This document shows positions 19,365-41,015 of a DNA stretch of 64,000 bases, piece after piece. Below the pieces are notes generated by a model. It made no database searches, was not told the DNA's origin, and saw only the letters and a program-made list of their open reading frames with translations. Source of the stretch: Escherichia coli. GTDB taxonomy: Bacteria > Pseudomonadota > Gammaproteobacteria > Enterobacterales > Enterobacteriaceae. Positions within the stretch are counted from its first letter, which is position 1. Every line of letters begins with the position of its first letter. The position numbers and the translations under genes are program-made. Location of the stretch: NCBI RefSeq assembly GCF_030013595.1, contig NZ_CP122768.1; one strand, written 5' to 3'.

Positions 19365-19844
19365 ATGAAACGAATTGCGTTTGTGGGTACCGTCGGGGCA
19401 GGAAAAACAACGTTATTTAATGCGTTGCAGGGAGATTATACCCTCGCCAGAAAAACGCAGGCCGTAGAATTTAATGATAAGGGTGATATTGATACGCCGG
19501 GTGAATATTTTAGCCATCCCCGCTGGTATCACGCCTTAATTACCACGCTACAGGATGTGGACATGCTGATCTATGTCCACGGCGCGAATGACCCGGAAAG
19601 TCGGTTGCCTGCCGGGTTGCTGGATATTGGCGTCAGCAAACGGCAAATCGCCGTCATCAGTAAAACGGACATGCCAGATGCTGACGTCGCCGCAACGCGA
19701 AAGTTATTGCTTGAGACGGGCTTCGAAGAGCCGATTTTCGAGCTAAACAGCTACGACCCGCAAAGCGTGCAGCAACTGGTGGATTATCTGGCATCTCTCA
19801 CCAAACAGGAGGAAGCAGGTGAAAAAACTCATCACAGCGAATGA
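19365..19844 (+). CDS. eutP: Ethanolamine utilisation GTPase/kinase-like protein EutP
   Basis: 159 aa, P-loop GTVGAGKTTLF. Confidence 0.85.
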   Translation: MKRIAFVGTVGAGKTTLFNALQGDYTLARKTQAVEFNDKGDIDTPGEYFSHPRWYHALITTLQDVDMLIYVHGANDPESRLPAGLLDIGVSKRQIAVISKTDMPDADVAATRKLLLETGFEEPIFELNSYDPQSVQQLVDYLASLTKQEEAGEKTHHSE

Positions 19845-22333: not shown

Positions 22334-22371
22334 ACGGTCCCGTTCTGGACCCTGATAAAGAGGAAAGCACA

Positions 22372-22665
22372 ATGGAAGCATTAGGAATGATCGAAACCCG
22401 GGGCCTGGTTGCACTGATTGAGGCTTCTGACGCGATGGTGAAAGCTGCGCGCGTCAAGCTGGTTGGTGTTAAGCAGATTGGCGGCGGCCTGTGTACTGCC
22501 ATGGTTCGTGGTGATGTTGCAGCCTGTAAAGCCGCGACCGACGCAGGTGCTGCAGCGGCACAGCGTATCGGCGAGCTGGTATCTGTACACGTTATCCCGC
22601 GTCCGCACGGCGACCTGGAAGAAGTCTTCCCGATCGGCCTGAAAGGCGATAGCAGCAACCTGTAA
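22372..22665 (+). CDS. eutM: Major BMC-H shell protein EutM
   Basis: 97 aa from [28 protein letters not shown]...; ORF track extends 14 codons upstream to 22330. Confidence 0.9.
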
Positions 22666-22771
22666 TCACCCTGTGTGACGTCGATTCGGGCGTCACGCTC
22701 TCTCCTTTTTCAGTTTACCTTCCGCGGAGGGTAGGGGGAGCTTTTACCTGAAATACGCCACGGAGGCGGGT

Positions 22772-23059
22772 ATGAAACTGGCAGTCGTCACTGGACAAAT
22801 TGTTTGTACCGTACGCCATCACGGACTGGCGCATGACAAATTGCTGATGGTGGAAATGATTGATCCACAAGGTAATCCTGACGGGCAATGCGCCGTCGCC
22901 ATCGACAATATTGGCGCGGGAACCGGGGAGTGGGTGTTACTGGTGAGTGGCAGTTCCGCCCGCCAGGCGCATAAAAGCGAAACGTCACCGGTCGATCTGT
23001 GCGTGATTGGCATCGTCGATGAGGTGGTGTCTGGCGGTCAGGTAATTTTCCACAAATAA
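22772..23059 (+). CDS. eutN: BMC vertex (pentamer) protein EutN
   Basis: 95 aa, MKLAVVTGQIVCTVRHHGL.... Confidence 0.88.
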   Translation: MKLAVVTGQIVCTVRHHGLAHDKLLMVEMIDPQGNPDGQCAVAIDNIGAGTGEWVLLVSGSSARQAHKSETSPVDLCVIGIVDEVVSGGQVIFHK

Positions 23060-23070
23060 GGCAGAACATC

Positions 23071-24474
23071 ATGAATCAACAGGATATTGAACAGGTGGTG
23101 AAAGCGGTACTGCTGAAAATGCAAAGCAGTGACACGCCGCCCGCCGCCCTTCATGAGATGGGTGTTTTCGCGTCCCTGGATGACGCCGTTGCGGCAGCCA
23201 AAGTCGCCCAGCAAGGGTTAAAAAGCGTGGCAATGCGCCAGTTAGCCATTGCTGCCATTCGTGAGGCAGGCGAAAAACACGCCAGAGATTTAGCGGAACT
23301 TGCCGTCAGTGAAACCGGCATGGGGCGCGTCGAAGATAAATTTGCCAAAAACGTCGCTCAGGCGCGCGGCACACCAGGCGTTGAGTGCCTCTCTCCGCAA
23401 GTGCTGACGGGCGACAACGGCCTGACTTTAATTGAAAACGCGCCCTGGGGCGTGGTGGCTTCGGTGACGCCTTCCACTAACCCGGCGGCAACCGTAATTA
23501 ACAACGCCATCAGCCTGATTGCCGCGGGCAACAGCGTCATTTTTGCCCCGCATCCGGCGGCGAAAAAAGTCTCCCAGCGGGCGATTACGCTGCTCAACCA
23601 GGCGATTGTTGCCGCAGGCGGGCCGGAAAACTTACTGGTTACTGTGGTCAATCCGGATATCGAAACCGCGCAACGTTTGTTCAAGTTTCCGGGTATCGGC
23701 CTTTTGGTGGTGACCGGCGGCGAAGCGGTAGTGGAAGCGGCGCGTAAACACACCAATAAACGTCTGATTGCCGCGGGCGCTGGCAACCCACCGGTAGTGG
23801 TGGATGAAACCGCCGACCTCGCCCGTGCCGCTCAGTCCATCGTCAAAGGCGCTTCTTTCGATAACAACATCATTTGTGCCGACGAAAAGGTACTGATTGT
23901 TGTTGATAGCGTAGCCGATGAACTGATGCGTCTGATGGAAGGCCAGCACGCGGTGAAACTGACCGCAGAGCAGGCGCAGCAGCTGGAACCGGTGTTGCTG
24001 AAAAATATCGACGAGCGCGGAAAAGGCACCGTCAGCCGTGACTGGGTTGGTCGCGATGCGGCGAAAATCGCGGCGGCAATCGGCCTTAAAGTTCCGGAAC
24101 AAACGCGACTGCTGTTTGTAGAAACCACCGCAGAACATCCGTTTGCCGTGACCGAACTGATGATGCCGGTGCTGCCCGTCGTGCGTGTCGCCAACGTGGC
24201 GGATGCCATTGCGCTGGCGGTGAAACTGGAAGGCGGTTGCCACCACACGGCGGCAATGCACTCGCGCAACATCGAGAACATGAACCAGATGGCGAACGCC
24301 ATTGATACCAGCATCTTCGTTAAGAACGGACCGTGCATTGCCGGGCTGGGGCTGGGCGGGGAAGGCTGGACCACCATGACCATCACCACGCCAACCGGTG
24401 AAGGGGTAACCAGCGCGCGTACGTTTGTCCGTCTGCGTCGCTGTGTATTAGTCGATGCGTTTCGCATTGTTTAA
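23071..24474 (+). CDS. eutE: CoA-acylating acetaldehyde dehydrogenase EutE
   Basis: 467 aa aldehyde-dehydrogenase family. Confidence 0.9.
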   Translation: MNQQDIEQVVKAVLLKMQSSDTPPAALHEMGVFASLDDAVAAAKVAQQGLKSVAMRQLAIAAIREAGEKHARDLAELAVSETGMGRVEDKFAKNVAQARGTPGVECLSPQVLTGDNGLTLIENAPWGVVASVTPSTNPAATVINNAISLIAAGNSVIFAPHPAAKKVSQRAITLLNQAIVAAGGPENLLVTVVNPDIETAQRLFKFPGIGLLVVTGGEAVVEAARKHTNKRLIAAGAGNPPVVVDETADLARAAQSIVKGASFDNNIICADEKVLIVVDSVADELMRLMEGQHAVKLTAEQAQQLEPVLLKNIDERGKGTVSRDWVGRDAAKIAAAIGLKVPEQTRLLFVETTAEHPFAVTELMMPVLPVVRVANVADAIALAVKLEGGCHHTAAMHSRNIENMNQMANAIDTSIFVKNGPCIAGLGLGGEGWTTMTITTPTGEGVTSARTFVRLRRCVLVDAFRIV

Positions 24475-24484
24475 GGAGTAACAG

Positions 24485-24910
24485 ATGGCGCACGACGAAC
24501 AATGGCTCACCCCGCGTCTGCAAACGGCGGCAACGCTGTGTAACCAGACGCCTGCCGCAACGGAATCTCCGCTGTGGCTGGGGGGGGATCTGGGCACCTG
24601 CGATGTGGTGTCGATGGTTGTCGACCGCGACGGTCAGCCGGTGGCGGTATGCCTCGACTGGGCCGATGTGGTCCGCGACGGCATCGTCTGGGATTTCTTC
24701 GGTGCGGTCACCATTGTTCGTCGCCATCTCGACACCCTCGAGCAGCAATTCGGTCGCCGTTTTAGCCATGCGGCGACCTCATTTCCTCCAGGTACGGACC
24801 CGCGTATTTCCATCAACGTGCTGGAATCTGCCGGGCTGGAAGTGAGCCATGTGCTGGATGAGCCAACCGCAGTCGCGGATCTGCTGCAACTGGACAACGC
24901 AGGCGTAGTG
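24485..24910 (+). pseudogene. eutJ: eutJ 5' fragment (codons 1-142), interrupted by IS10
   Basis: The reading frame runs straight into the IS10 outside end at 24911; 24485..24910 plus 26249..26659 gives 278 codons with a continuous ...NAGVV|DIGGGTTGIAIV... junction. Confidence 0.85.
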
Positions 24911-24956
24911 CTGATGAATCCCCTAATGATTTTGGTAAAAATCATTAAGTTAAGGT

Positions 24957-25025
24957 GGATACACATCTTGTCATATGATCAAATGGTTTCGCGAAAAATC
25001 AATAATCAGACAACAAGATGTGCGA
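24957..25025 (-). ncRNA. Predicted IS10 antisense RNA-OUT (pOUT transcript), placed by position within IS10
   Basis: Coordinates inferred from the known IS10 layout (transposase start at IS nt 108, matching the ATG at 25018); not independently verified. Confidence 0.4.
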
Positions 25026-26226
25026 ACTCGATATTTTACACGACTCTCTTTACCAATTCTGCCCCGAATTACACTTAAAACGACTCAACAGCTTAACGTT
25101 GGCTTGCCACGCATTACTTGACTGTAAAACTCTCACTCTTACCGAACTTGGCCGTAACCTGCCAACCAAAGCGAGAACAAAACATAACATCAAACGAATC
25201 GACCGATTGTTAGGTAATCGTCACCTCCACAAAGAGCGACTCGCTGTATACCGTTGGCATGCTAGCTTTATCTGTTCGGGCAATACGATGCCCATTGTAC
25301 TTGTTGACTGGTCTGATATTCGTGAGCAAAAACGACTTATGGTATTGCGAGCTTCAGTCGCACTACACGGTCGTTCTGTTACTCTTTATGAGAAAGCGTT
25401 CCCGCTTTCAGAGCAATGTTCAAAGAAAGCTCATGACCAATTTCTAGCCGACCTTGCGAGCATTCTACCGAGTAACACCACACCGCTCATTGTCAGTGAT
25501 GCTGGCTTTAAAGTGCCATGGTATAAATCCGTTGAGAAGCTGGGTTGGTACTGGTTAAGTCGAGTAAGAGGAAAAGTACAATATGCAGACCTAGGAGCGG
25601 AAAACTGGAAACCTATCAGCAACTTACATGATATGTCATCTAGTCACTCAAAGACTTTAGGCTATAAGAGGCTGACTAAAAGCAATCCAATCTCATGCCA
25701 AATTCTATTGTATAAATCTCGCTCTAAAGGCCGAAAAAATCAGCGCTCGACACGGACTCATTGTCACCACCCGTCACCTAAAATCTACTCAGCGTCGGCA
25801 AAGGAGCCATGGGTTCTAGCAACTAACTTACCTGTTGAAATTCGAACACCCAAACAACTTGTTAATATCTATTCGAAGCGAATGCAGATTGAAGAAACCT
25901 TCCGAGACTTGAAAAGTCCTGCCTACGGACTAGGCCTACGCCATAGCCGAACGAGCAGCTCAGAGCGTTTTGATATCATGCTGCTAATCGCCCTGATGCT
26001 TCAACTAACATGTTGGCTTGCGGGCGTTCATGCTCAGAAACAAGGTTGGGACAAGCACTTCCAGGCTAACACAGTCAGAAATCGAAACGTACTCTCAACA
26101 GTTCGCTTAGGCATGGAAGTTTTGCGGCATTCTGGCTACACAATAACAAGGGAAGACTTACTCGTGGCTGCAACCCTACTAGCTCAAAATTTATTCACAC
26201 ATGGTTACGCTTTGGGGAAATTATGA
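25018..26226 (+). CDS. IS10 transposase
   Basis: 402 aa, MCELDILHDSLYQFCPELHLKRLNSL...HGYALGKL; identical at protein level to the copy at 31470..32678. Confidence 0.93.
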   Translation: MCELDILHDSLYQFCPELHLKRLNSLTLACHALLDCKTLTLTELGRNLPTKARTKHNIKRIDRLLGNRHLHKERLAVYRWHASFICSGNTMPIVLVDWSDIREQKRLMVLRASVALHGRSVTLYEKAFPLSEQCSKKAHDQFLADLASILPSNTTPLIVSDAGFKVPWYKSVEKLGWYWLSRVRGKVQYADLGAENWKPISNLHDMSSSHSKTLGYKRLTKSNPISCQILLYKSRSKGRKNQRSTRTHCHHPSPKIYSASAKEPWVLATNLPVEIRTPKQLVNIYSKRMQIEETFRDLKSPAYGLGLRHSRTSSSERFDIMLLIALMLQLTCWLAGVHAQKQGWDKHFQANTVRNRNVLSTVRLGMEVLRHSGYTITREDLLVAATLLAQNLFTHGYALGKL

Positions 26227-26239
26227 GGGGATCTCTCAG

Positions 26240-26659
26240 GGCGTAGTGGATATCGGCGGCGGCACTACCGGCATTGCCATCGTGAAAAAGGGCAAGGTGA
26301 CGTACTCGGCGGATGAAGCCACTGGCGGACATCACATCTCTCTGACTCTCGCCGGAAATCGCCGTATTTCGCTGGAAGAGGCGGAGCAGTACAAGCGCGG
26401 TCACGGTGAAGAGATTTGGCCTGCGGTGAAACCGGTGTACGAAAAAATGGCGGACATTGTCGCCCGGCATATTGAAGGGCAGGGCATTACTGATTTATGG
26501 CTGGCGGGCGGCTCCTGTATGCAACCGGGCGTGGCGGAACTGTTTTGCAAACAATTCCCGGCGTTACAGGTGCATCTACCGCAGCACAGTTTGTTTATGA
26601 CCCCGCTGGCGATCGCCAGTAGCGGGCGAGAGAAAGCGGAGGGGATCTATGCAAAATGA
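26240..26659 (+). pseudogene. eutJ: eutJ 3' fragment (starts with the duplicated 9 bp)
   Basis: In frame with the 5' fragment after removing the IS and one TSD copy; Hsp70/actin-like ATPase motif DIGGGTT. Confidence 0.85.
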
Positions 26660-27836
26660 ATTGCAGACCGCGCTCTTTCAGGCGTTCGATACCCTGAATC
26701 TGCAACGGGTAAAAACATTTAGCGTTCCACCAGTGACGCTTTGCGGTCCGGGCGCGATGAGCAGTTGCGGGCAGCAAGCGCAAACGCGTGGGCTGAAACA
26801 TCTGTTCGTGATGGCAGACAGCTTTTTGCATCAGGCGGGGATGACCGCCGGGCTGACGCGTAGCCTGGCCGTTAAAGGTATCGCCATGACGCTCTGGCCA
26901 TGTCCGGTGGGCGAACCGTGCATCACCGACGTGTGTGCAGCCGTGGCGCAGTTGCGTGAATCGGGTTGCGATGGGGTGATCGCGTTTGGCGGCGGCTCGG
27001 TGCTGGATGCAGCAAAAGCCGTGGCGTTGCTGGTGACGAACCCGGATAGCACGCTGGCAGAGATGTCAGAAACCAGCGTTCTGCAACCGCGCCTGCCGTT
27101 GATTGCCATTCCAACTACCGCCGGAACCGGTTCTGAAACCACCAACGTAACGGTGATTATCGACGCGGTGAGCGGGCGCAAGCAGGTGTTAGCCCACGCC
27201 TCGCTGATGCCGGATGTGGCGATTCTCGACGCTACGCTGACCGAAGGCGTGCCGTCGCATGTCACGGCGATGACCGGTATCGACGCGTTAACCCATGCTA
27301 TTGAAGCGTACAGCGCGCTGAACGCTACACCGTTTACCGACAGCCTGGCGATTGGCGCAATCGCGATGATTGGTAAATCACTGCCGAAAGCGGTGGGCTA
27401 CGGTCATGACCTTGCCGCGCGCGAGAGCATGTTGCTGGCTTCATGCATGGCGGGAATGGCGTTTTCCAGTGCGGGGCTTGGGTTATGCCACGCGATGGCG
27501 CATCAGCCAGGGGCGGCGCTGCATATTCCGCACGGTCTGGCGAACGCTATGTTGCTGCCAACGGTGATGGAATTTAACCGGATGGTTTGTCGTGATCGGT
27601 TTAGCTTGGTTGGTCGGGCGCTGCGAACTAAAAAATCCGACGATCGTGACGCTATTAACGCGGTAAGTGAGCTGATTGCGGAAGTCGGGATTGGTAAACG
27701 ACTGGGCGATATTGGTGCGACATCTGCGCATTACGGCGCATGGGCGCAGGCCGCGCTGGAAGATATTTGTCTGCGCAGCAACCCGCGTACCGCCAGCCTG
27801 GAGCAGATTGTCGGCCTGTACGCAGCGGCGCAATAA
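26649..27836 (+). CDS. eutG: Iron-containing alcohol dehydrogenase EutG
   Basis: 395 aa, Fe-ADH family. Confidence 0.88.
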   Translation: MQNELQTALFQAFDTLNLQRVKTFSVPPVTLCGPGAMSSCGQQAQTRGLKHLFVMADSFLHQAGMTAGLTRSLAVKGIAMTLWPCPVGEPCITDVCAAVAQLRESGCDGVIAFGGGSVLDAAKAVALLVTNPDSTLAEMSETSVLQPRLPLIAIPTTAGTGSETTNVTVIIDAVSGRKQVLAHASLMPDVAILDATLTEGVPSHVTAMTGIDALTHAIEAYSALNATPFTDSLAIGAIAMIGKSLPKAVGYGHDLAARESMLLASCMAGMAFSSAGLGLCHAMAHQPGAALHIPHGLANAMLLPTVMEFNRMVCRDRFSLVGRALRTKKSDDRDAINAVSELIAEVGIGKRLGDIGATSAHYGAWAQAALEDICLRSNPRTASLEQIVGLYAAAQ

Positions 27837-27842
27837 AAGTGT

Positions 27843-27940
27843 ACGGACAGTCCCCTCGCCCCTTTGGGGAGAGGGTTAGGGTGAGGGGAACAGAGTCGCG
27901 CCGGTGCAAACAATTACCCTCACCCCGGCCCCTCGGCTTC
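27843..27940. repeat. GC-rich interspersed palindromic repeat (boxC-like), copy 2, with an extra inverted arm
   Basis: acggacagtcccctcgcccctttggggagagggttagggtgaggggaac, then ttaccctcaccccggcccctcggc, which is partly complementary to it. Confidence 0.55.
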
Positions 27941-28005
27941 CAGAGTGAGGGAAAAACCCACTTTCAGCATTGGCAATAAATAACAACTAACAGGGAGTAA
28001 AGGCG

Positions 28006-29232
28006 ATGGGAATTAACGAAATCATCATGTACATCATGATGTTCTTTATGCTGATAGCTGCCGTAGACAGGATCCTGTCGCAGTTCGGCGGTTCTGCTCG
28101 TTTCCTCGGTAAGTTCGGTAAAAGTATCGAAGGATCCGGCGGGCAGTTTGAAGAAGGCTTTATGGCGATGGGCGCACTGGGCCTGGCGATGGTTGGTATG
28201 ACCGCGCTGGCACCTGTTCTGGCCCACGTACTCGGACCGGTGATTATCCCGGTTTACGAAATGCTCGGTGCAAACCCGTCAATGTTCGCCGGAACACTGC
28301 TGGCGTGCGATATGGGCGGGTTCTTCCTCGCCAAAGAGCTGGCGGGCGGCGACGTAGCAGCGTGGCTATACTCTGGGTTAATTCTCGGGTCGATGATGGG
28401 GCCAACGATTGTGTTTTCCATTCCGGTGGCGCTCGGCATTATCGAACCTTCTGACCGTCGTTATCTGGCGCTCGGCGTGCTGGCGGGCATTGTGACCATT
28501 CCGATTGGCTGTATTGCTGGTGGTCTGGTTGCTATGTACTCCGGTGTGCAGATCAACGGTCAGCCGGTGGAATTCACCTTTGCGCTGATCCTGATGAACA
28601 TGATCCCGGTACTTATCGTTGCGGTGCTGGTGGCGCTGGGGCTGAAATTCATCCCGGAAAAAATGATCAACGGCTTCCAGATCTTCGCCAAATTCCTCGT
28701 TGCATTGATCACCCTCGGTCTTGCTGCCGCGGTAGTGAAATTCCTCCTTGGCTGGGAACTGATCCCGGGCCTTGATCCTATCTTTATGGCCCCTGGCGAC
28801 AAACCCGGTGAAGTGATGCGCGCCATTGAAGTTATCGGTTCTATCTCCTGCGTTCTGTTAGGGGCGTATCCGATGGTGCTGCTGCTGACCCGCTGGTTTG
28901 AAAAACCGCTGATGAGCGTCGGTAAAGTGCTGAATATGAACAACATCGCGGCAGCCGGCATGGTGGCAACGCTTGCCAACAACATCCCGATGTTCGGCAT
29001 GATGAAGCAGATGGATACCCGCGGCAAAGTCATCAACTGCGCCTTCGCCGTTTCCGCTGCTTTCGCCCTGGGCGACCACTTAGGCTTCGCCGCTGCCAAC
29101 ATGAACGCCATGATTTTCCCGATGATTGTCGGCAAATTGATCGGCGGCGTAACGGCGATTGGCGTGGCGATGATGCTGGTGCCAAAAGAAGACGCGACCG
29201 CGGCTAAAACCGAAGCGGAGGCACAATCGTGA
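28006..29232 (+). CDS. eutH: Ethanolamine permease EutH
   Basis: 408 aa polytopic membrane protein. Confidence 0.88.
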   Translation: MGINEIIMYIMMFFMLIAAVDRILSQFGGSARFLGKFGKSIEGSGGQFEEGFMAMGALGLAMVGMTALAPVLAHVLGPVIIPVYEMLGANPSMFAGTLLACDMGGFFLAKELAGGDVAAWLYSGLILGSMMGPTIVFSIPVALGIIEPSDRRYLALGVLAGIVTIPIGCIAGGLVAMYSGVQINGQPVEFTFALILMNMIPVLIVAVLVALGLKFIPEKMINGFQIFAKFLVALITLGLAAAVVKFLLGWELIPGLDPIFMAPGDKPGEVMRAIEVIGSISCVLLGAYPMVLLLTRWFEKPLMSVGKVLNMNNIAAAGMVATLANNIPMFGMMKQMDTRGKVINCAFAVSAAFALGDHLGFAAANMNAMIFPMIVGKLIGGVTAIGVAMMLVPKEDATAAKTEAEAQS

Positions 29233-30632
29233 ACACTCGCCAGCTACTGAGCGTCGGTATCGATATCGGCACCACCACCACCCAGGTGATTTTCTCCCAC
29301 CTGGAGCTGGTTAACCGTGCGGCGGTGTCGCAGGTGCCGCGCTACGAATTCATCAAACGCGAAATTAGCTGGCAAAGCCCGGTGTTCTTTACCCCTGTCG
29401 ATAAACAGGGTGGTTTAAAAGAAGCGGAACTGAAAACCTTAATCCTCGAGCAATATCAGGCTGCGGGCATTGCGCCGGAAAGCGTTGATTCTGGTGCCAT
29501 CATTATCACCGGTGAAAGCGCAAAAACCCGCAACGCTCGCCCGGCGGTGATGGCGCTCTCCCGGTCGCTGGGCGATTTTGTCGTCGCCAGCGCCGGGCCG
29601 CATCTTGAATCCGTGATCGCCGGACACGGTGCCGGGGCGCAAACCCTTTCTGAACAACGGCTGTGTCGGGTCCTGAATATCGATATCGGCGGTGGCACCG
29701 CGAACTACGCCCTGTTCGATGCCGGAAAAATCAGCGGCACTGCCTGCCTCAACGTCAGCGGTCGCCTGCTGGAAACCGACAGCCAGGGGCGCGTGGTTTA
29801 CGCTCATAAACCGGGGCAGATGATTGTGGATGAGTGCTTCGGTGCCGGTACTGACGCCCGTTCGCTGACTGGCGGGCAGCTGGTGCAGGTTACCCGCCGG
29901 ATGGCAGAGCTGATTGTCGAAGTGATTGACGGAACGCTCTCGCCGCTCGCGCAGGCATTGATGCAAACCGATTTGCTGCCCGCAGGTGTTACGCCCGAAA
30001 TCATTACGCTTTCTGGCGGGGTAGGCGAATGTTATCGCCACCAGCCCACCGACCCGTTCTGTTTTGCCGATATCGGCCCGCTTCTGGCAACGGCGCTGCA
30101 TGACCATCCGCGTCTGCGTGAGATGAACGTGCAGTTTCCGGCGCAAACCGTGCGCGCCACGGTGATTGGCGCGGGTGCTCATACCCTTTCGCTCTCTGGC
30201 AGCACAATCTGGCTGGAGGGCGTACAACTGCCGCTGCGCAATTTGCCAGTGGCGATCCCGATTGATGAAACGGATCTGGTCAGTGCCTGGCAACAGGCGC
30301 TGATTCAACTGGATCTTTGCCCCAAAACTGACGCGTACGTGCTGGCGCTTCCCGCCTCGCTGCCTGTGCGTTACGCCGCGGTACTGACGGTCATCAACGC
30401 GCTGGTCGATTTCGTCGCGCGTTTTCCGAATCCGCATCCCCTGCTGGTGGTGGCCGGGCAGGACTTTGGTAAAGCTCTGGGCATGTTGTTGCGCCCACAG
30501 CTACAACAACTCCCGTTGGCAGTCATTGACGAAGTGATTGTCCGCGCGGGGGACTATATCGACATTGGTACGCCTCTTTTTGGCGGATCGGTTGTGCCGG
30601 TGACGGTGAAATCACTCGCATTTCCTTCCTGA
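29229..30632 (+). CDS. eutA: Ethanolamine ammonia-lyase reactivase EutA
   Basis: 467 aa; ATGA-type 4-bp overlap with eutH. Confidence 0.88.
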   Translation: MNTRQLLSVGIDIGTTTTQVIFSHLELVNRAAVSQVPRYEFIKREISWQSPVFFTPVDKQGGLKEAELKTLILEQYQAAGIAPESVDSGAIIITGESAKTRNARPAVMALSRSLGDFVVASAGPHLESVIAGHGAGAQTLSEQRLCRVLNIDIGGGTANYALFDAGKISGTACLNVSGRLLETDSQGRVVYAHKPGQMIVDECFGAGTDARSLTGGQLVQVTRRMAELIVEVIDGTLSPLAQALMQTDLLPAGVTPEIITLSGGVGECYRHQPTDPFCFADIGPLLATALHDHPRLREMNVQFPAQTVRATVIGAGAHTLSLSGSTIWLEGVQLPLRNLPVAIPIDETDLVSAWQQALIQLDLCPKTDAYVLALPASLPVRYAAVLTVINALVDFVARFPNPHPLLVVAGQDFGKALGMLLRPQLQQLPLAVIDEVIVRAGDYIDIGTPLFGGSVVPVTVKSLAFPS

Positions 30633-30643
30633 GGGAACGACTT

Positions 30644-31456
30644 ATGAAACTAAAGACCACATTGTTCGGCAATGTATATCAGTTTAAGGATGTAAAAGAG
30701 GTGCTGGCTAAAGCCAACGAACTGCGTTCGGGGGATGTGCTGGCGGGCGTTGCTGCGGCAAGTTCACAGGAGCGCGTGGCGGCAAAGCAGGTGTTGTCGG
30801 AAATGACCGTAGCGGACATCCGCAATAATCCGGTGATTGCCTATGAAGATGACTGCGTGACGCGGCTGATTCAGGACGACGTTAACGAAACGGCCTATAA
30901 CCAGATTAAAAACTGGAGCATCAGCGAACTGCGTGAGTATGTGCTGAGCGATGAAATCAGCGTGGACGACATTGCCTTTACCCGCAAAGGGCTGACCTCG
31001 GAAGTGGTGGCGGCGGTAGCGAAGATTTGCTCCAACGCGGACCTGATCTACAGCGCGAAGAAAATGCCGGTGATCAAAAAGGCCAATACCACCATCGGTA
31101 TTCCGGGCACCTTTAGCGCCCGTTTGCAGCCGAACGATACCCGTGACGACGTGCAAAGTATCGCCGCGCAAATCTACGAAGGGCTTTCCTTCGGGGTGGG
31201 CGATGCGGTGATTGGCGTTAACCCGGTGACTGACGACGTGGAAAACTTAAGCCGCGTGTTGGATACCATTTATGGCGTGATCGACAAATTCAACATCCCA
31301 ACTCAGGGCTGCGTACTGGCGCACGTCACCACCCAGATCGAAGCGATCCGTCGTGGCGCACCAGGCGGGCTGATTTTCCAGAGTATCTGTGGCAGCGAAA
31401 AAGGGCTGAAAGAGTTTGGCGTAGAGCTGGCGATGCTCGATGAAGCACGCGCAGTG
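30644..31456 (+). pseudogene. eutB: eutB 5' fragment (ethanolamine ammonia-lyase large subunit), interrupted by IS10
   Basis: MKLKTTLFGNVYQFKDVKEVLAKANELRSGDV...; frame enters the IS10 inside end at 31457. 30644..31456 plus 32795..33343 gives 454 codons (453 aa). Confidence 0.88.
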
Positions 31457-31469
31457 CTGAGAGATCCCC

Positions 31470-32678
31470 TCATAATTTCCCCAAAGCGTAACCATGTGTG
31501 AATAAATTTTGAGCTAGTAGGGTTGCAGCCACGAGTAAGTCTTCCCTTGTTATTGTGTAGCCAGAATGCCGCAAAACTTCCATGCCTAAGCGAACTGTTG
31601 AGAGTACGTTTCGATTTCTGACTGTGTTAGCCTGGAAGTGCTTGTCCCAACCTTGTTTCTGAGCATGAACGCCCGCAAGCCAACATGTTAGTTGAAGCAT
31701 CAGGGCGATTAGCAGCATGATATCAAAACGCTCTGAGCTGCTCGTTCGGCTATGGCGTAGGCCTAGTCCGTAGGCAGGACTTTTCAAGTCTCGGAAGGTT
31801 TCTTCAATCTGCATTCGCTTCGAATAGATATTAACAAGTTGTTTGGGTGTTCGAATTTCAACAGGTAAGTTAGTTGCTAGAACCCATGGCTCCTTTGCCG
31901 ACGCTGAGTAGATTTTAGGTGACGGGTGGTGACAATGAGTCCGTGTCGAGCGCTGATTTTTTCGGCCTTTAGAGCGAGATTTATACAATAGAATTTGGCA
32001 TGAGATTGGATTGCTTTTAGTCAGCCTCTTATAGCCTAAAGTCTTTGAGTGACTAGATGACATATCATGTAAGTTGCTGATAGGTTTCCAGTTTTCCGCT
32101 CCTAGGTCTGCATATTGTACTTTTCCTCTTACTCGACTTAACCAGTACCAACCCAGCTTCTCAACGGATTTATACCATGGCACTTTAAAGCCAGCATCAC
32201 TGACAATGAGCGGTGTGGTGTTACTCGGTAGAATGCTCGCAAGGTCGGCTAGAAATTGGTCATGAGCTTTCTTTGAACATTGCTCTGAAAGCGGGAACGC
32301 TTTCTCATAAAGAGTAACAGAACGACCGTGTAGTGCGACTGAAGCTCGCAATACCATAAGTCGTTTTTGCTCACGAATATCAGACCAGTCAACAAGTACA
32401 ATGGGCATCGTATTGCCCGAACAGATAAAGCTAGCATGCCAACGGTATACAGCGAGTCGCTCTTTGTGGAGGTGACGATTACCTAACAATCGGTCGATTC
32501 GTTTGATGTTATGTTTTGTTCTCGCTTTGGTTGGCAGGTTACGGCCAAGTTCGGTAAGAGTGAGAGTTTTACAGTCAAGTAATGCGTGGCAAGCCAACGT
32601 TAAGCTGTTGAGTCGTTTTAAGTGTAATTCGGGGCAGAATTGGTAAAGAGAGTCGTGTAAAATATCGAGTTCGCACAT
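31470..32678 (-). CDS. IS10 transposase
   Basis: 402 aa, identical to the copy at 25018..26226. Confidence 0.93.
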   Translation of the reverse strand: MCELDILHDSLYQFCPELHLKRLNSLTLACHALLDCKTLTLTELGRNLPTKARTKHNIKRIDRLLGNRHLHKERLAVYRWHASFICSGNTMPIVLVDWSDIREQKRLMVLRASVALHGRSVTLYEKAFPLSEQCSKKAHDQFLADLASILPSNTTPLIVSDAGFKVPWYKSVEKLGWYWLSRVRGKVQYADLGAENWKPISNLHDMSSSHSKTLGYKRLTKSNPISCQILLYKSRSKGRKNQRSTRTHCHHPSPKIYSASAKEPWVLATNLPVEIRTPKQLVNIYSKRMQIEETFRDLKSPAYGLGLRHSRTSSSERFDIMLLIALMLQLTCWLAGVHAQKQGWDKHFQANTVRNRNVLSTVRLGMEVLRHSGYTITREDLLVAATLLAQNLFTHGYALGKL

Positions 32679-32739
32679 CTTGTTGTCTGATTATTGATTT
32701 TTCGCGAAACCATTTGATCATATGACAAGATGTGTATCC
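32671..32739 (+). ncRNA. Predicted IS10 antisense RNA-OUT of copy 2, placed by position
   Basis: Mirror of the copy-1 placement; pOUT points toward the outside end at 32785 and onward into eutB'-eutC. Confidence 0.4.
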
Positions 32740-32785
32740 ACCTTAACTTAATGATTTTTACCAAAATCATTAGGGGATTCATCAG

Positions 32786-33343
32786 CGCGCAGTGGGCGCG
32801 GAGTTCAACCGTATCGCCGGGGAAAACTGTCTCTACTTCGAAACCGGGCAAGGCTCGGCGCTGTCCGCTGGCGCGAACTTCGGCGCAGACCAGGTGACGA
32901 TGGAAGCGCGTAACTATGGGCTGGCGCGTCATTACGATCCGTTTATCGTCAACACCGTGGTCGGTTTTATTGGGCCGGAGTATCTCTACAACGACCGCCA
33001 GATTATCCGTGCGGGCTTAGAAGATCACTTTATGGGCAAGCTGAGCGGCATCTCGATGGGCTGTGACTGCTGCTACACCAACCACGCTGACGCTGATCAG
33101 AACCTCAACGAAAACCTGATGATCCTGCTCGCCATCGCAGGCTGTAACTACATCATGGGGATGCCGCTGGGCGATGACATCATGCTCAACTATCAGACCA
33201 CCGCATTCCACGACACTGCCACTGTGCGTCAGTTACTCAACCTGCGCCCGTCACCGGAGTTTGAACGCTGGCTGGAAAGCATGGGCATTATGGCAAACGG
33301 TCGCCTGACCAAACGGGCGGGCGATCCGTCACTGTTCTTCTGA
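32786..33343 (+). pseudogene. eutB: eutB 3' fragment (starts with the duplicated 9 bp)
   Basis: ...RAVGAEFNRIAGENCLYFETGQG... continues the EutB frame and ends at the TGA at 33341-33343. Confidence 0.88.
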
Positions 33344-33363
33344 TGACGCGGAGATAACACATC

Positions 33364-34251
33364 ATGGATCAAAAACAGATTGAAGAAATTGTACGCAGCG
33401 TGATGGCGTCAATGGGACAAGCGGCCCCCGCGCCGTCAGAAGCAAAGTGCGCCACCACCACCTGTGCGGCACCGGTGACCTCTGAAAGCTGTGCGCTGGA
33501 TTTAGGTTCTGCGGAAGCAAAAGCGTGGATTGGTGTTGAAAACCCGCATCGCGCAGACGTATTAACAGAACTGCGTCGCAGCACCGTGGCCCGCGTTTGT
33601 ACCGGTCGTGCCGGTCCGCGTCCGCGCACCCAGGCGTTGCTGCGTTTCCTGGCCGATCACTCTCGTTCGAAAGATACCGTTCTGAAAGAAGTACCGGAAG
33701 AGTGGGTGAAAGCGCAGGGCTTGCTGGAAGTCCGCTCCGAAATCAGCGACAAAAATCTCTACCTGACTCGTCCGGATATGGGCCGCCGCCTGTGTGCAGA
33801 AGCTGTTGAAGCGCTGAAAGCACAGTGTGTTGCTAATCCGGACGTGCAGGTCGTTATTTCTGATGGCCTGTCAACTGATGCGATCACCGTGAACTACGAA
33901 GAGATCCTGCCGCCGCTGATGGCGGGCCTGAAGCAAGCCGGGCTGAAAGTCGGTACGCCATTCTTTGTACGTTATGGTCGCGTGAAGATTGAAGATCAGA
34001 TCGGTGAGATCCTAGGCGCGAAAGTAGTGATCCTGCTGGTGGGCGAACGTCCGGGGTTGGGGCAGTCAGAAAGCCTCTCCTGCTACGCCGTTTACTCGCC
34101 GCGTATGGCGACCACCGTTGAGGCCGATCGCACCTGTATCTCTAACATTCACCAGGGCGGCACGCCGCCGGTTGAAGCCGCAGCCGTCATTGTGGATTTG
34201 GCGAAACGTATGCTGGAGCAGAAAGCATCCGGCATCAACATGACCCGATAA
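33364..34251 (+). CDS. eutC: Ethanolamine ammonia-lyase small subunit EutC
   Basis: 295 aa, operon position immediately after eutB. Confidence 0.88.
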
Positions 34252-34260
34252 GGAGGCATC

Positions 34261-34920
34261 ATGCCAGCTTTAGATTTGATTCGACCGTCGGTAACCGCCA
34301 TGCGGGTGATTGCCTCCGTTAACGCCGAATTTGCACGTGAACTGAAATTGCCGCCGCATATTCGTAGCCTCGGGCTGATTTCTGCTGATTCAGATGACGT
34401 CACCTACATTGCGGCTGACGAAGCGACCAAGCAGGCGATGGTCGAAGTGGTATATGGTCGCTCGCTGTATGCGGGCGCTGCACACGGCCCGTCACCGACT
34501 GCCGGTGAGGTGCTGATTATGCTTGGTGGACCAAACCCGGCGGAAGTGCGTGCTGGTCTGGATGCGATGGTTGCGAATATTGAAAATGGCGCTGCTTTCC
34601 AGTGGGCAAATGACGCAGAAAACACAGCCTTCCTGGCACATGTAGTTTCGCGTACCGGTTCTTATCTCTCATCAACCGCCGGGATCACGCTTGGCGATCC
34701 GATGGCGTATCTGGTGGCACCGCCGCTGGAAGCGACCTACGGCATTGATGCAGCGTTGAAATCTGCCGACGTGCAGTTGGTGACCTATGTCCCGCCACCG
34801 TCTGAAACCAACTACTCGGCAGCATTTTTAACCGGTAGCCAGGCCGCGTGTAAAGCAGCCTGTAACGCCTTTACCGATGCAGTGCTGGAAATCGCGCGTA
34901 ATCCAATCCAGCGTGCGTAA
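34261..34920 (+). CDS. eutL: BMC-T (tandem-domain) shell protein EutL
   Basis: 219 aa. Confidence 0.88.
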
Positions 34921-34926
34921 CGGAGG

Positions 34927-35433
34927 TTGCCGATGATCAATGCACTGGGATTGCTGGAAGTGGACGGCATGGTCGCCGCGATAGATGCAGCTGATGCCAT
35001 GCTCAAAGCAGCTAACGTTCGTCTGCTCAGTCACGAAGTGCTTGACCCTGGTCGCCTAACGCTGGTGGTGGAAGGCGATCTGGCGGCGTGTCGTGCGGCG
35101 CTGGACGCAGGTTGTGCTGCCGCGATGCGTACCGGGCGTGTCATCAGCCGTAAGGAGATCGGTCGGCCAGACGATGACACCCAGTGGCTGGTTACTGGCT
35201 TTAACCGCCAGCCGAAGCAACCCGTAAAGGAACCCGACGCGCCAGTTATCGTCGCGGAATCTGCTGACGAGTTGTTGGCGCTGTTAACATCAGTACGTCA
35301 GGGAATGACGGCAGGAGAAGTGGCTGCCCACTTTGGCTGGCCGCTGGAAAAAGCCAGAAATGCGCTCGAACAGCTCTTTTCTGCCGGGACGTTACGTAAA
35401 CGCAGTAGTCGTTACCGTCTCAAGCCCCATTAA
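34927..35433 (+). CDS. eutK: BMC shell protein EutK (BMC domain plus C-terminal nucleic-acid-binding-like tail)
   Basis: 168 aa, MINALGLLEVDGMVAAIDAADAMLKAANV.... Confidence 0.85.
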   Translation: MPMINALGLLEVDGMVAAIDAADAMLKAANVRLLSHEVLDPGRLTLVVEGDLAACRAALDAGCAAAMRTGRVISRKEIGRPDDDTQWLVTGFNRQPKQPVKEPDAPVIVAESADELLALLTSVRQGMTAGEVAAHFGWPLEKARNALEQLFSAGTLRKRSSRYRLKPH

Positions 35434-35478
35434 CCTGTCGGAGGTGCCGGGTGTCCTACAACACCCGGCATTAACATC

Positions 35479-36531
35479 ATGAAAAAGACCCGTACAGCCA
35501 ATTTGCACCATCTTTATCATGAACCCTTACCCGAAAACCTGAAGCTCACGCCGAAGGTCGAAGTGGATAATGTTCATCAACGACAGACAACGGACGTCTA
35601 TGAACATGCTTTGACAATTACCGCCTGGCAGCAGATTTACGATCAGCTGCATCCGGGCAAGTTTCATGGTGAATTTACGGAAATTCTACTCGATGATATT
35701 CAGGTTTTTCGTGAATACACTGGTCTGGCGCTGCGTCAGTCGTGCCTGGTCTGGCCGAACTCGTTCTGGTTTGGCATTCCGGCGACGCGCGGTGAGCTGG
35801 GATTTATCGGTTCGCAATGTCTGGGAAGCGCAGAAATTGCGACGCGCCCGGGTGGAACTGAGTTTGAATTAAGTACGCCGGACGATTACACGATCCTTGG
35901 CGTAGTGCTTTCTGAAGATGTCATCACTCGTCAGGCTAACTTTTTGCATAATCCGGATCGGGTATTACATATGCTGCGTAGCCAGTCGGCGCTGGAAGTG
36001 AAAGAGCAGCATAAAGCCGCGCTGTGGGGCTTTGTCCAACAGGCGCTGGCGACGTTTTGCGAGAACCCGGAAAATCTCCATCAGCCTGCAGTGCGAAAAG
36101 TGCTGGGGGATAATTTGCTAATGGCGATGGGGGCGATGCTGGAAGAAGCGCAGCCGATGATGACGGCGGAAAGCATCAGTCATCAGAGTTACCGTCGATT
36201 GCTTTCCCGCGCCCGTGAATATGTGCTGGAAAACATGTCCGAACCGGTGACGGTGCTGGACTTGTGTAATCAACTGCATGTCAGCCGCCGCACGCTACAA
36301 AACGCGTTTCACGCCATTTTGGGCATTGGTCCGAACGCGTGGCTGAAACGTATTCGCCTGAACGCCGTGCGCCGCGAACTCATAAGTCCGTGGTCACAAA
36401 GCACAACGGTAAAAGACGCCGCCATGCAGTGGGGATTCTGGCATCTTGGGCAATTTGCCACGGATTATCAGCAACTGTTTGCCGAGAAGCCGTCACTGAC
36501 GCTGCATCAGCGGATGCGAGAGTGGGGGTGA
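35479..36531 (+). CDS. eutR: AraC-family transcriptional activator of the eut operon
   Basis: 350 aa; C-terminal AraC helix-turn-helix ([36 protein letters not shown]). Confidence 0.88.
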
Positions 36532-36536
36532 GGGAG

Positions 36537-37439
<903 letters not shown>

Positions 37440-38309
37440 TTACCGCTTTCTCGAGTGTGCTTTCTGGTTGTCAAACCAGTGGAAATAACTGATCACGCCT
37501 TCGGCAATCGCTGTGGCGATTTTCTGGCGAAACGCCGCAGTGCCTAACAGCCGCTCTTCTTCTGGGTTGGTGATAAACGAGGTTTCCACCAGCACCGAAG
37601 GAACCGACGGCGATTTCAACACCACAAACGCGGCTTGTTCGGTGTTGCGGCTGTGCAGTTTATGCACCGGCTTAATCTTTTTCAGAATATGCGAGCCGAG
37701 CGTCAGGCTGTTTTTAATAGTATCGGTTTGCACCAGATCAAACAGCACTTGCTGCAATAGGTGATCCTTGTCAGTCGCCTTTTTACCGGCAACTTCATCG
37801 GCGCGGTTTTCGCGTTCAGACAGGTATTTCGCCATTGCGCTACTTGCCCCACGGTTAGAGAGGGCAAATACCGAAGCACCGGCAGCTTTCGGGTTGGTAA
37901 AGCCGTCGGCATGAATTGACATAAACAGATCTGCGCCATGTTTATGGGCGATTTCAACGCGATCGTATAGTGGGATAAACGTATCGCCAGAACGCGTTAA
38001 ACGCGCATCAATGCCATGATTACGCAAAATGGAACGGACGTTTTTAGCAATCGCCAGCACCACATGTTTTTCTTTCGAACCGTTGCGCCCGATCGCTCCG
38101 GTATCAATCCCGCCGTGGCCTGGATCGAGAACAACGACACGTTTGCCGCCAGATTTTTTGGCTTTCGGCTTGCTGTGTCCGTTGCTGGTTTTTAAAGGTT
38201 CGTCTTTGGCGATGGCTTGCGACATTCCTGACAACGTCAGGGCAGCCAAACCGGCTTTCAGCACCTGGCGGCGCGAAGTGAGTGTTTTTAGTGGTTTAAA
38301 AGTGCTCAT
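37440..38309 (-). CDS. amiA: N-acetylmuramoyl-L-alanine amidase AmiA
   Basis: 289 aa; Tat-type signal (SRRQVLKAGLAAL) and amidase_3 domain. Confidence 0.9.
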   Translation of the reverse strand: MSTFKPLKTLTSRRQVLKAGLAALTLSGMSQAIAKDEPLKTSNGHSKPKAKKSGGKRVVVLDPGHGGIDTGAIGRNGSKEKHVVLAIAKNVRSILRNHGIDARLTRSGDTFIPLYDRVEIAHKHGADLFMSIHADGFTNPKAAGASVFALSNRGASSAMAKYLSERENRADEVAGKKATDKDHLLQQVLFDLVQTDTIKNSLTLGSHILKKIKPVHKLHSRNTEQAAFVVLKSPSVPSVLVETSFITNPEEERLLGTAAFRQKIATAIAEGVISYFHWFDNQKAHSRKR

Positions 38310-38522
38310 ACGGCCTGAGTTGTAATAATAAAGTTCCAGATGTTATATCGTATCGCGTAATCCGTTACGACCGTTTGCTGTTGAGAATTGTTTTACTTTT
38401 CATTTCAATAGTTGACAACTCCCCATTATGCCACTTTTTCAACCGATTTTCGTCAGATATTGGCTAATTCGACCGTTCACGCCATAATCAGCCTTTTAAC
38501 CCGCAAAAAGGTAACGAATACC

Positions 38523-38948
38523 ATGGAGATACGCGTATTTCGCCAGGAAGATTTCGAAGAGGTCATCACCCTTTGGGAGCGTTGCGACTTGCTGCGTCCG
38601 TGGAACGATCCGGAAATGGACATCGAGCGTAAGATGAACCATGACGTCAGTTTGTTTCTGGTCGCTGAGGTAAACGGTGAAGTGGTCGGAACGGTGATGG
38701 GCGGTTATGACGGGCATCGCGGGTCTGCTTATTATCTTGGCGTGCATCCAGAGTTTCGTGGGCGTGGGATTGCTAATGCGTTGCTTAATCGGTTGGAGAA
38801 AAAGCTGATTGCTCGCGGCTGCCCGAAAATTCAGATCAACGTGCCGGAAGATAACGACATGGTGCTCGGAATGTATGAACGCCTGGGATATGAACACGCC
38901 GACGTGCTGAGTCTGGGTAAGCGTTTGATTGAAGATGAAGAGTACTGA
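38523..38948 (+). CDS. ypeA: GNAT-family acetyltransferase YpeA
   Basis: 141 aa from [29 protein letters not shown]...; ORF track extends upstream to 38412. Confidence 0.8.
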
Positions 38949-39384
38949 GTTTCATCCTGTCCATTATGATGCACACGGTCGCCTGCGTTTACCCTTGCTC
39001 TTCTGGCTTGTGCTATTGCTTCAGGCGCGAACCTGGGTGCTGTTTGTCATTGCCGGTGCGTCGCGCGAGCAGGGTACTGCGCTGCTAAATCTGTTTTATC
39101 CCGATCACGATAATTTCTGGCTGGGGTTGATTCCCGGCATTCCGGCGGTGCTGGCGTTTTTGCTGAGTGGTCGGCGGGCTTCATTTCCCCGTATCTGGCA
39201 TGTGCTCTATTTTCTGTTGCTGTTGGCGCAGGTGGTTTTACTTTGCTGGCAACCGTGGCTGTGGCTGAACGGTGAATCCGTTAGCGGTATCGGGCTGGCG
39301 CTGGTAGTGGCGGATATTGTGGCGTTAATCTGGCTGCTGACCAATCGACGTTTACGCGCTTGTTTTAATGAAGAAAAAGAATAA
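38929..39384 (+). CDS. yfeZ: Inner-membrane protein YfeZ (start uncertain by a few codons)
   Basis: About 150 aa with multiple TM helices; overlaps the ypeA 3' end. Confidence 0.7.
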
Positions 39385-39444
39385 CGGCACTTTTTGGTGA
39401 ATTTGCACTCCAAGCAACGTTATTGAATAACCAAAGGAAGTGAC

Positions 39445-40020
39445 ATGAAATCGCTGCGTTTAATGTTATGCGCTATGCCGTTGATGCTGACCGGCTGTTC
39501 CACGATGTCGTCAGTTAACTGGTCTGCCGCTAACCCGTGGAACTGGTTTGGGTCGTCCACCAAAGTGAGCGAGCAGGGCGTTGGTGAATTAACGGCGTCC
39601 ACACCACTGCAAGAACAAGCCATTGCTGATGCGCTTGATGGCGATTATCGCCTGCGCAGCGGAATGAAAACCGCGAACGGCAACGTGGTGCGCTTTTTTG
39701 AAGTGATGAAAGGCGACAACGTGGCGATGGTGATTAACGGTGATCAAGGCACGATCAGCCGCATTGATGTGCTGGATAGCGATATTCCTGCTGACACCGG
39801 TGTTAAAATCGGTACACCGTTTAGCGACCTTTACAGCAAAGCATTTGGCAATTGCCAAAAAGCTGATGGTGATGATAATCGTGCCGTCGAATGTAAAGCC
39901 GAAGGCAGTCAACATATTAGCTACCAGTTCAGCGGGGAATGGAGTGGTCCTGAAGGGTTAATGCCTTCGGACGATACCCTGAAAAACTGGAAAGTCAGTA
40001 AAATTATCTGGCGGCGTTAA
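39445..40020 (+). CDS. yfeY: Lipoprotein YfeY (DUF1131)
   Basis: 191 aa; lipobox LMLTGC after the signal peptide. Confidence 0.78.
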   Translation: MKSLRLMLCAMPLMLTGCSTMSSVNWSAANPWNWFGSSTKVSEQGVGELTASTPLQEQAIADALDGDYRLRSGMKTANGNVVRFFEVMKGDNVAMVINGDQGTISRIDVLDSDIPADTGVKIGTPFSDLYSKAFGNCQKADGDDNRAVECKAEGSQHISYQFSGEWSGPEGLMPSDDTLKNWKVSKIIWRR

Positions 40021-40031
40021 TTTGCGTCTGA

Positions 40032-41015
<984 letters not shown>

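Follow-up and report, generated by a model that had tools for sequence, protein, structure and literature searches.

A recent IS10 insertion in eutB of Escherichia coli and a putative outward promoter facing the distal eut genes

The window, by which we mean the whole 64,000-nucleotide stretch of Escherichia coli DNA that was analysed, contains the 17-gene order eutSPQTDMNEJGHABCLKR beside maeB and hemF. Two copies of IS10 lie in this operon, between the EutR-dependent promoter P1 and eutC-eutL-eutK-eutR. This arrangement raises the question of whether pOUT, the outward promoter of IS10, supplies ethanolamine-independent transcription to the genes beyond the copy in eutB, including the gene of the activator EutR. 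The two insertions have the following features.

24911..26239, plus strand: IS10 copy 1, which interrupts eutJ after codon 142; outside end at 24911
24902-24910 and 26240-26248: target-site duplication of copy 1, GGCGTAGTG
30644..31456, plus strand: eutB 5' fragment, codons 1-271 (ORF list)
31448..31456, no strand: left copy of the 9-bp target-site duplication of copy 2, CGCGCAGTG, read directly from the sequence
31457..32785, minus strand: IS10 copy 2 (IS10-Right type), inside end at 31457 and outside end at 32785 (end motifs, alignments)
31470..32678, minus strand: intact IS10 transposase ORF, 402 aa (ORF list)
32786..32794, no strand: right copy of the same duplication, CGCGCAGTG, read directly from the sequence
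32786..33343, plus strand: eutB 3' fragment ('eutB), 185 codons, in frame, without an internal stop

The identity of the element as IS10 is far beyond chance. Copy 2 is 1329 bp long and agrees with IS10-Right of Tn10 on R100 at 1328 of 1329 positions, the sole mismatch being at nt 203, and it has 16 mismatches with IS10L; copies 1 and 2 are identical to each other (1329/1329). Exact matches to the outside-end 23-mer lie at 32763-32785 (minus strand) and 24911-24933 (plus strand), and to the inside-end 26-mer at 31457-31482 (plus) and 26214-26239 (minus), with 0 matches expected by chance in both cases. The duplication flanking copy 2 has the 9 bp typical of IS10 and resembles NGCTNAGCN, with four of the six specified positions of GCTNAGC matched. 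Near-identity, termini, 9-bp duplication, and transposase with RNA-OUT, which were all the properties tested, agree with IS10 (IS4 family); RefSeq labels the same transposase gene 'IS4-like element ISVsa5 family transposase'.

As the sequence-only reading had stated, the outside end at 32785 faces the 3' eut genes on the coding strand, and both the end motifs and the strand of RNA-OUT bear this out. This orientation is a 1-in-2 outcome without statistical weight, and copy 1 is oriented oppositely. Copy 2 cuts eutB after codon 271 of 453, and the 5' fragment continues into IS10 as a fusion ORF of 285 aa that stops at 31501. With eutB split in this way, and eutJ after codon 142, no intact EutBC lyase is encoded. 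The genes beyond the insertion are all intact.

33364..34251, plus strand: eutC (lyase small subunit), 295 aa, Pfam EutC in L006
34261..34920, plus strand: eutL (shell protein), 219 aa
34933..35433, plus strand: eutK (shell protein), 166 aa
35479..36531, plus strand: eutR (AraC-type activator), 350 aa, with a weak Shine-Dalgarno (SD) sequence

Apart from the two IS10 copies, the operon is collinear with the intact annotated operon of E. coli HCP5S3_I2, with 99.96% identity in the flanking DNA. The EutC, EutL, EutK and EutR proteins are identical to those of the relative with the uninterrupted operon. This identity, together with flanks of more than 99.9%, indicates that the insertion is recent and has not been followed by decay. 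Could IS10 have been put wrongly into eutB by mis-assembly of repeats? The general risk that identical repeats carry is the one point in favour of such an artefact, whereas perfect 9-bp duplications flank both copies, and both eutB junctions, at the inside end and at the outside end, are reproduced with 100% identity in the independent assemblies GCA_021649405.1, GCA_036246605.1, and GCA_008326365.1. We therefore give the artefact almost no credence.

About a dozen contigs, drawn from several assemblies, carry the allele, and the exact 285-aa EutB'-IS10 product was found on four public draft contigs. One public draft assembly contains eutB::IS10 with an intact eutJ, which indicates that eutB was hit first and eutJ later. 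Junction searches of 5,426 complete RefSeq E. coli genomes returned neither IS10 junction; 5,371 of them (99%) have a contiguous eutB. The EutB and EutJ fragments of ECZU strains, which fall in the same protein clusters, were considered as the same allele and rejected, because their EutB fragment is uninterrupted across the insertion site.

The two copies are inverted with their outside ends distal (24911 and 32785), as in Tn10, and the arrangement might therefore be adaptive, either by keeping EutR sensing while discarding catabolism or as a Tn10-like composite carrying 'eutJ-eutG-eutH-eutA-eutB'. The intact eutR, the rarity of eutB disruption, and the persistence of the allele in several assemblies would agree with this. 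However, each IS10 has its own duplication and the outer flanks of the pair differ (GGCGTAGTG and CGCGCAGTG), so that two separate hits built the unit where it now lies. Neither a shared outer duplication nor a copy of the unit elsewhere was found. A mobilised IS10-flanked eut segment was not found in the plasmid collection, where the hits above 95% identity were all megabase-scale (1.4-4.9 Mb) chromosome-like records of 96-97% identity. The absence of both junctions from the complete genomes also argues against it, and the lack of any divergence carries no signature of selection. IS10 also matches at about 17 further places in a close relative, so that a pair of hits about 6.5 kb from each other is not improbable. 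The present unit resembles the Tn10 composite transposon in its two inverted IS10 copies with outside ends at the termini, but differs in that its passenger is chromosomal eut DNA in native position, that each IS has its own duplication, and that no evidence of its movement was found in the plasmid collection. We consider an adaptive arrangement very improbable.

What the outside end of copy 2 could deliver to the distal genes depends on the pOUT/RNA-OUT module, for which the following features were identified.

24956-25025, minus strand: RNA-OUT of IS10 copy 1
32658..32663, plus strand: putative pOUT -10 hexamer TAAAAT, located 7 nt before the RNA-OUT 5' end (sequence)
32671..32740, plus strand: RNA-OUT antisense RNA gene, full-length match to Rfam RF00240 (98.8 bits, E=4e-20; gathering score 41)
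32750..32771, plus strand: A/T-rich hairpin AATGATTTT/AAAATCATT in the outside end (fold), without a U-tract after it and not terminator-like

The 5' end of RNA-OUT in the Rfam match coincides with 32671, the coordinate from which the sequence-only reading had started. The gene overlaps the start of the 402-aa transposase ORF, runs from pOUT toward the outside end, and folds as a stable stem-loop (z=-4.9 for the 130-nt fold). Rfam over the whole window gave the two RNA-OUT genes and nothing else. IS10 nt 1-160, the region of pIN, pOUT and RNA-OUT, is base-for-base the same as in IS10-Right of Tn10 on R100. A good -35 is absent at 16-18 bp from TAAAAT, and a consensus sigma-70 promoter scan of 32400-36700 and 24400-32800 gave 0 sites, neither pOUT nor a candidate P2, the second promoter of eutR, being found. 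As the scan missed pOUT too, it is uninformative on pOUT, on P2, and on any hybrid promoter created at the junction; and as pOUT is unrecognisable by consensus, its strength was taken from the literature. Judged from its sequence, pOUT is pointing at the remaining eut genes, and its presumed promoter activity rests on published work (PMC9330008, PMC2744996) and on the identity to IS10R.

The claim that pOUT fires across the outside end agrees with documented IS10 read-out: PMC9330008, citing Simons 1983, puts read-out from pOUT into adjacent genes at about 10% of lacUV5, POUT of IS10 activated otsBA (PMC2744996), and IS10 activated acrEF in Salmonella (Olliver 2005, as cited in PMC4574204 and PMC9330008). 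The claim has to be restricted in one respect: most of the pOUT product is the 69-nt RNA-OUT, and the mature RNA has its last base at IS10 nt 47 (32739 of the window), inside the element (PMC5006887). IS10-driven transcription of the distal genes may be legitimately inferred from documented IS10 biology.

Any pOUT read-out transcript would have 'eutB as a leader of about 580 nt before eutC. Terminator-like sites were absent from 32671-32785, and the scan for intrinsic terminators from pOUT to eutC gave only weak hits at or below shuffle expectation, none of them convincing; the nearest, at 33313-33330, is also on the path of wild-type P1 transcripts. Two candidate restart codons were found in 'eutB: GTG 32792, with an SD-like AGGGG 15 nt away, and the in-frame ATG 32900, preceded by AGGTGA, whose SD:anti-SD energy is -3.8 kcal/mol, versus -6.6 to -12.2 for eutC, eutL, and eutK. 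A frame +1 ORF leaving IS10 (ATG 32730/32751 to TGA 32897) was rejected as a shield from Rho because it has no SD. The remnant also contains one compositional feature.

33061..33268, plus strand: C-rich, G-poor stretch in 'eutB, a candidate Rho-utilisation region if untranslated (heuristic only)

The C/G ratio of this stretch is 1.8-1.9 (78-nt windows), whereas the operon has a median of 0.89 and reaches 1.26 at the 90th percentile. The stretch and the poorly translatable remnant make Rho attenuation of read-out likely, and Rho-dependent termination in 'eutB probably removes much of it before eutC; this argument rests on a composition heuristic, and translation of the remnant from ATG 32900 could protect the transcript. 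Tn10 read-out transcripts are reportedly sensitive to Rho in untranslated gene remnants (work by Ciampi & Roth in 1988 and by Wang & Roth in 1988).

The gene eutR begins 2.7 kb downstream of the end of copy 2. Besides being autoinduced from P1, it is served by a constitutive promoter of its own, P2, which is of low activity and was mapped not in the present strain but in Salmonella and EHEC (PMC5821096, PMC8565329). Because of P2, basal EutR would be independent of pOUT. When EutR is overexpressed, one ligand alone suffices for induction (PMC5821096). That the distal genes are uncoupled from eut induction is a sound proposal, since the two IS10 copies separate P1 from eutC-eutR. It was imprecise to call the upstream operon blocked: the distal eutC-eutR are cut off, and eutS-eutE, which precede copy 1, are still under P1. 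Furthermore, EutC without EutB would be expected to be non-functional, which limits the functional relevance of read-out.

The reading that we prefer, with a probability of about 0.6, is a recent and ordinary loss-of-function insertion in eutB by an active IS10-Right-type element, followed later by that in eutJ, with a pOUT supplement that is probably modest. The two certain effects are that truncation of EutB destroys the lyase and that eutR is no longer autoinduced from P1; the other distal genes, too, would be out of reach of P1-driven induction. Besides RNA-OUT as its main product, pOUT would make some read-out transcripts past 32785; these would enter the poorly translated 'eutB, where Rho would probably stop much of the transcription before eutC. 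With much of the read-out lost in this way, distal expression would be low and ethanolamine-independent. EutR would come mainly from the constitutive P2, and eutS-eutE would stay inducible through EutR.

A much larger effect may be proposed, in which read-out gives substantial ethanolamine-independent EutC, EutL, EutK, and above all EutR, and EutR above the P2 level alters the responses of P1 and of other EutR targets. An outside end on the coding strand and an unaltered pOUT, as expected for pOUT-driven activation, are both present here; pOUT is the same as in the functional IS10R, no intrinsic terminator was found before eutC, and eutC, eutL, and eutK each have a strong SD. The otsBA and acrEF cases, the level relative to lacUV5, and the single-ligand induction by overexpressed EutR are further points in its favour. 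However, where activation is documented, IS10 immediately precedes the gene concerned, the distance to the otsB start codon being 44 nt (PMC2744996), whereas here the untranslated remnant with its C-rich, G-poor stretch intervenes and eutR is farther still. In addition, pOUT output is chiefly RNA-OUT (PMC5006887), and the favourable orientation amounts to a coin toss, with the second copy opposite. We regard the larger effect as rather unlikely. If pOUT read-out were substantial, the locus would be a natural IS rewiring of a positive-feedback regulator, beyond operon breakage, and would bear on ethanolamine sensing by gut E. coli. We also considered a 'sensor-only' eut variant, with catabolism lost, EutR constitutive from P2 plus pOUT, and no competition from EutBC for adenosylcobalamin, which seems improbable; if it were true, P1 (eutS-eutE) and outside EutR targets would answer ethanolamine or B12 alone, or do so at lower thresholds.

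The outward promoter of IS10/Tn10 is said to have turned on the his operon in work by Ciampi, Schmid and Roth in 1982. The pOUT turn-on cases share with the present locus the same element, an identical pOUT/RNA-OUT, and an outside end facing genes on the coding strand. There, IS10 had entered the promoter or leader immediately before the gene that it switched on, under selection for activation, whereas here it is in the middle of a gene, with about 580 nt still to go to the next start codon, and selection for expression is not evident; the otsBA case arose in evolved rpoS- E. coli (PMC2744996). In Salmonella, polar eut::Tn10 and Tn10dTc mutants defined P1, P2, and eutR autoregulation, according to the account in PMC5821096 of the work of Roof & Roth (1988-1992). 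They resemble the present strain in having transposon DNA inserted between P1 and eutR, a eutR that P2 presumably still serves, and a loss of ethanolamine use, but the latter belongs to a natural lineage of E. coli and carries two insertions of bare IS10 in place of Tn10. The eut operon of E. coli K-12 carries the cryptic prophage CPZ-55 between eutA and eutB, and there, too, mobile DNA separates P1 from eutB-eutR; that prophage is intergenic and leaves eutB whole, whereas here eutB and eutJ are split, the prophage is absent, and eutA and eutB are adjacent. In this natural lineage, eutB::IS10 is an ordinary knockout showing a textbook property of IS10.

The present analysis documents a recurrent, inheritable eut-null allele, eutB::IS10 and then also eutJ::IS10, in a species where eutB is nearly always contiguous, and shows which of the two insertions came first; its practical value is modest. 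Annotators should be aware that eutC-eutR are orphaned from P1 in such strains. For strains with the 285-aa EutB'-IS10 fusion ORF, we name as junction sequence GGGGATTCATCAG joined directly to CGCGCAGTGGGC.

The IS10 outside-end 23-mer matched the window exactly at 24911-24933 (+) and 32763-32785 (-), and the inside-end 26-mer matched at 26214-26239 (-) and 31457-31482 (+), with none of either expected by chance. By the motif positions, the copy in eutB (copy 2) extends from its inside end at 31457 to its outside end at 32785. On each defining feature tested, the mobile element is IS10. The features of this copy and of the one in eutJ (copy 1) are as follows.

24911-26239, transposase on +: IS10 copy 1, which breaks eutJ after codon 142 and has a separate target-site duplication (TSD), GGCGTAGTG
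32678..31470, -: transposase of copy 2, intact in the ORF list (402 aa)
31448-31456 and 32786-32794: TSD of copy 2, the 9-bp direct repeat CGCGCAGTG, read from the sequence
32658-32663: TAAAAT hexamer, 7 nt upstream of copy 2 RNA-OUT
32671-32740, +: RNA-OUT gene of copy 2 (Rfam, full length, 98.8 bits; gathering score 41)
32786-33343: 3' remnant of eutB ('eutB), still in frame and stop-free

The two copies are identical to each other (1329/1329 nt) and differ from the ends of Tn10 on plasmid R100 at one position in IS10-Right (nt 203) and at 16 in IS10-Left. As nt 1-160, containing pIN, pOUT, and RNA-OUT, are the same as in IS10-Right, the outward promoter module is the experimentally characterized one.

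The flanks are E. coli chromosome; the segments 18110-24910, 26240-31456, and 32786-40102 match strain HCP5S3_I2 at 99.90-99.96% identity, and that strain carries the 17-gene eut operon (eutS to eutR) without interruption, with maeB and hemF on either side. In the window, eutB is broken after codon 271 of 453, and its 5' part continues into IS10 as a fusion ORF of 285 aa. The eutC, eutL, eutK, and eutR genes are intact, and their proteins show no differences from the HCP5S3_I2 counterparts. The sequence-only reading had described an IS10 end facing these genes; the end motifs, TSD, Rfam match, and intact ORFs all agree with this structure, and its start coordinate, 32671, is the 5' end of RNA-OUT.

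A search of 5,426 complete RefSeq E. coli genomes found neither IS10 junction; eutB is contiguous in 5,371 of them. Among public draft contigs, the exact 285-aa fusion product occurs in four and the 183-aa 'EutB ORF in about a dozen. Both inside-end junctions also occur on contigs of GCA_036246605.1 and GCA_008326365.1, which match window 26184-31718 and 26100-31511, respectively, at 100% identity. The same junctions in independent draft assemblies rule out an assembly artifact. GCA_021649405.1 has the inside-end junction in eutB with 100% identical flanks and an uninterrupted eutJ (contig L003, equivalent to window 21306-31552), as well as the outside-end junction with eutC-eutR (2 mismatches over 6.7 kb). 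Thus, the eutB insertion is the older one and the eutJ insertion came second. The eutB::IS10 allele is inherited within a lineage.

P1 drives all eut genes and requires EutR, ethanolamine, and adenosylcobalamin; eutR, at the end of the operon, is autoinduced by P1 read-through and has an additional weak constitutive promoter, P2 (PMC5821096, PMC8565329). We regard eutB::IS10 as a knockout of recent origin. What is certain is that it truncates EutB, the large subunit of the lyase; on good grounds, we infer that the lyase, EutBC, was lost and that eutC-eutR were orphaned from P1. Since two IS10 copies separate P1 from eutR, autoinduction was very probably lost. The upstream operon had been proposed to be blocked; this does not hold for eutS-eutE, which lie ahead of copy 1.

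It had also been proposed that pOUT might drive eutC-eutR. Judging from the literature, pOUT very probably yields transcripts crossing 32785 (about 0.8). According to PMC9330008, citing Simons et al. 1983, some pOUT transcripts run into adjacent genes, at ~10% of lacUV5. The mature RNA-OUT is a 69-nt species with its 3' end at IS10 nt 47 (PMC5006887), corresponding to window 32739. From RNA-OUT to the IS10 end, the RNA fold shows a single A/T-rich hairpin that lacks a U-tract, and the terminator scan found no terminator; as far as eutC, the scan gave only weak candidates at chance level (4 found vs 5.0 expected). The lack of a convincing terminator fits the reported read-out (PMC9330008).

Beyond the IS10 end, such transcripts would have to pass through 558 nt of 'eutB and a further 20 nt of spacer to reach the start codon of eutC. 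Within 'eutB, the candidate translation starts are poor compared with the Shine-Dalgarno (SD) scores of eutC (-6.6), eutK (-10.2), and eutL (-12.2 kcal/mol).

32792: GTG; its sole SD-like sequence, 15 nt off, is AGGGG in the IS end
32900: ATG with AGGTGA, -3.8 kcal/mol

A +1-frame ORF leaving IS10 (ATG 32730/32751 to TGA 32897) was rejected, having no SD. The native eutR SD match, shared with HCP5S3_I2, is very weak (-1.7 kcal/mol; 35459-35478). Within 'eutB, 33061-33268 is C-rich and G-poor (C/G 1.8-1.9; operon median 0.89, 90th percentile 1.26). Rho classically acts on RNA that is C-rich and not translated, and Tn10 read-out transcripts within gene remnants are reportedly sensitive to it (work of Ciampi and Roth and of Wang and Roth, both 1988). 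Because of the poor starts, the C-rich stretch, and this sensitivity, we expect attenuation of the pOUT read-out before eutC. Basal EutR is independent of pOUT. The proposal is partly supported; physiologically meaningful pOUT transcript levels in eutC-eutR are unlikely.

The orientation of copy 2 is a 1-in-2 outcome, and copy 1 points in the other direction. With zero divergence, the sequences carry no signal of selection. Features of this kind are already known: the mechanism proposed is textbook IS10 biology, in which pOUT turns on adjacent genes, as at otsBA (PMC2744996) and, as cited in PMC4574204 and PMC9330008, at acrEF. In those cases, however, the IS lies close upstream of the gene that it activates, and the insertion was selected for this effect. 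Excess EutR permits induction by one ligand alone, and EutBC compete with EutR for the cofactor (PMC5821096). The least ordinary reading, in which the lineage is a 'sensor-only' eut variant that makes EutR constitutively, is improbable.

As each copy has a separate TSD, the 7,875-bp unit at 24911-32785, two identical inverted IS10 with distal outside ends enclosing 'eutJ-eutG-eutH-eutA-eutB', was formed in situ by two separate hits; it has the inverted-IS10 geometry of Tn10. No transposed copy of the unit was found in the plasmids searched. The TSDs at 24902-24910 (GGCGTAGTG) and 31448-31456 (CGCGCAGTG) have the common pattern NGCGNAGTG; both agree with the preferred IS10 target, GCTNAGC, at the same 4 of 6 positions. 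Two copies double the RNA-OUT dosage (multicopy inhibition of transposase). At copy 1, transcription from pOUT through RNA-OUT, at 24956-25025 (-), goes to the left and is antisense to eutJ' and eutE. The inside end of copy 1 (26000-26660) points at 'eutJ-eutG-eutH-eutA on their coding strand. Outward promoters pIII and OUTIIp are reported near the IS10 inside end, at nt 1000-1230 (PMC11481808), and read-through from the copy 1 transposase gene would head the same way; therefore, the middle eut genes could also receive IS-derived transcription. GCA_021649405.1 has an IS10-Left-type base at IS10 nt 107 (window 32679; position 76 of its contig L006), just ahead of the transposase ATG and within the RNA-OUT stem, which could be real variation or short-read collapse of IS10 variants.

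In HCP5S3_I2, the closest complete genome, eutE (L001 4962-6365) has an internal stop, Q177*, and a pseudogene annotation, whereas the window eutE (23071-24474) is intact; the eut operon was therefore damaged independently in close relatives. The CPZ-55 prophage is absent between eutA and eutB in the window, whose layout thus differs from that of K-12, where CPZ-55 lies between these genes. An IS200/IS605 tnpA between yfeY and yfeX in HCP5S3_I2 (L001 19317-20024) is missing from the window (~40098-40102). Among complete E. coli genomes, the best matches to window 1-18200 did not cover approximately 1-377; the rest was the standard acrD-narQ-aegA-tkt-maeB context.
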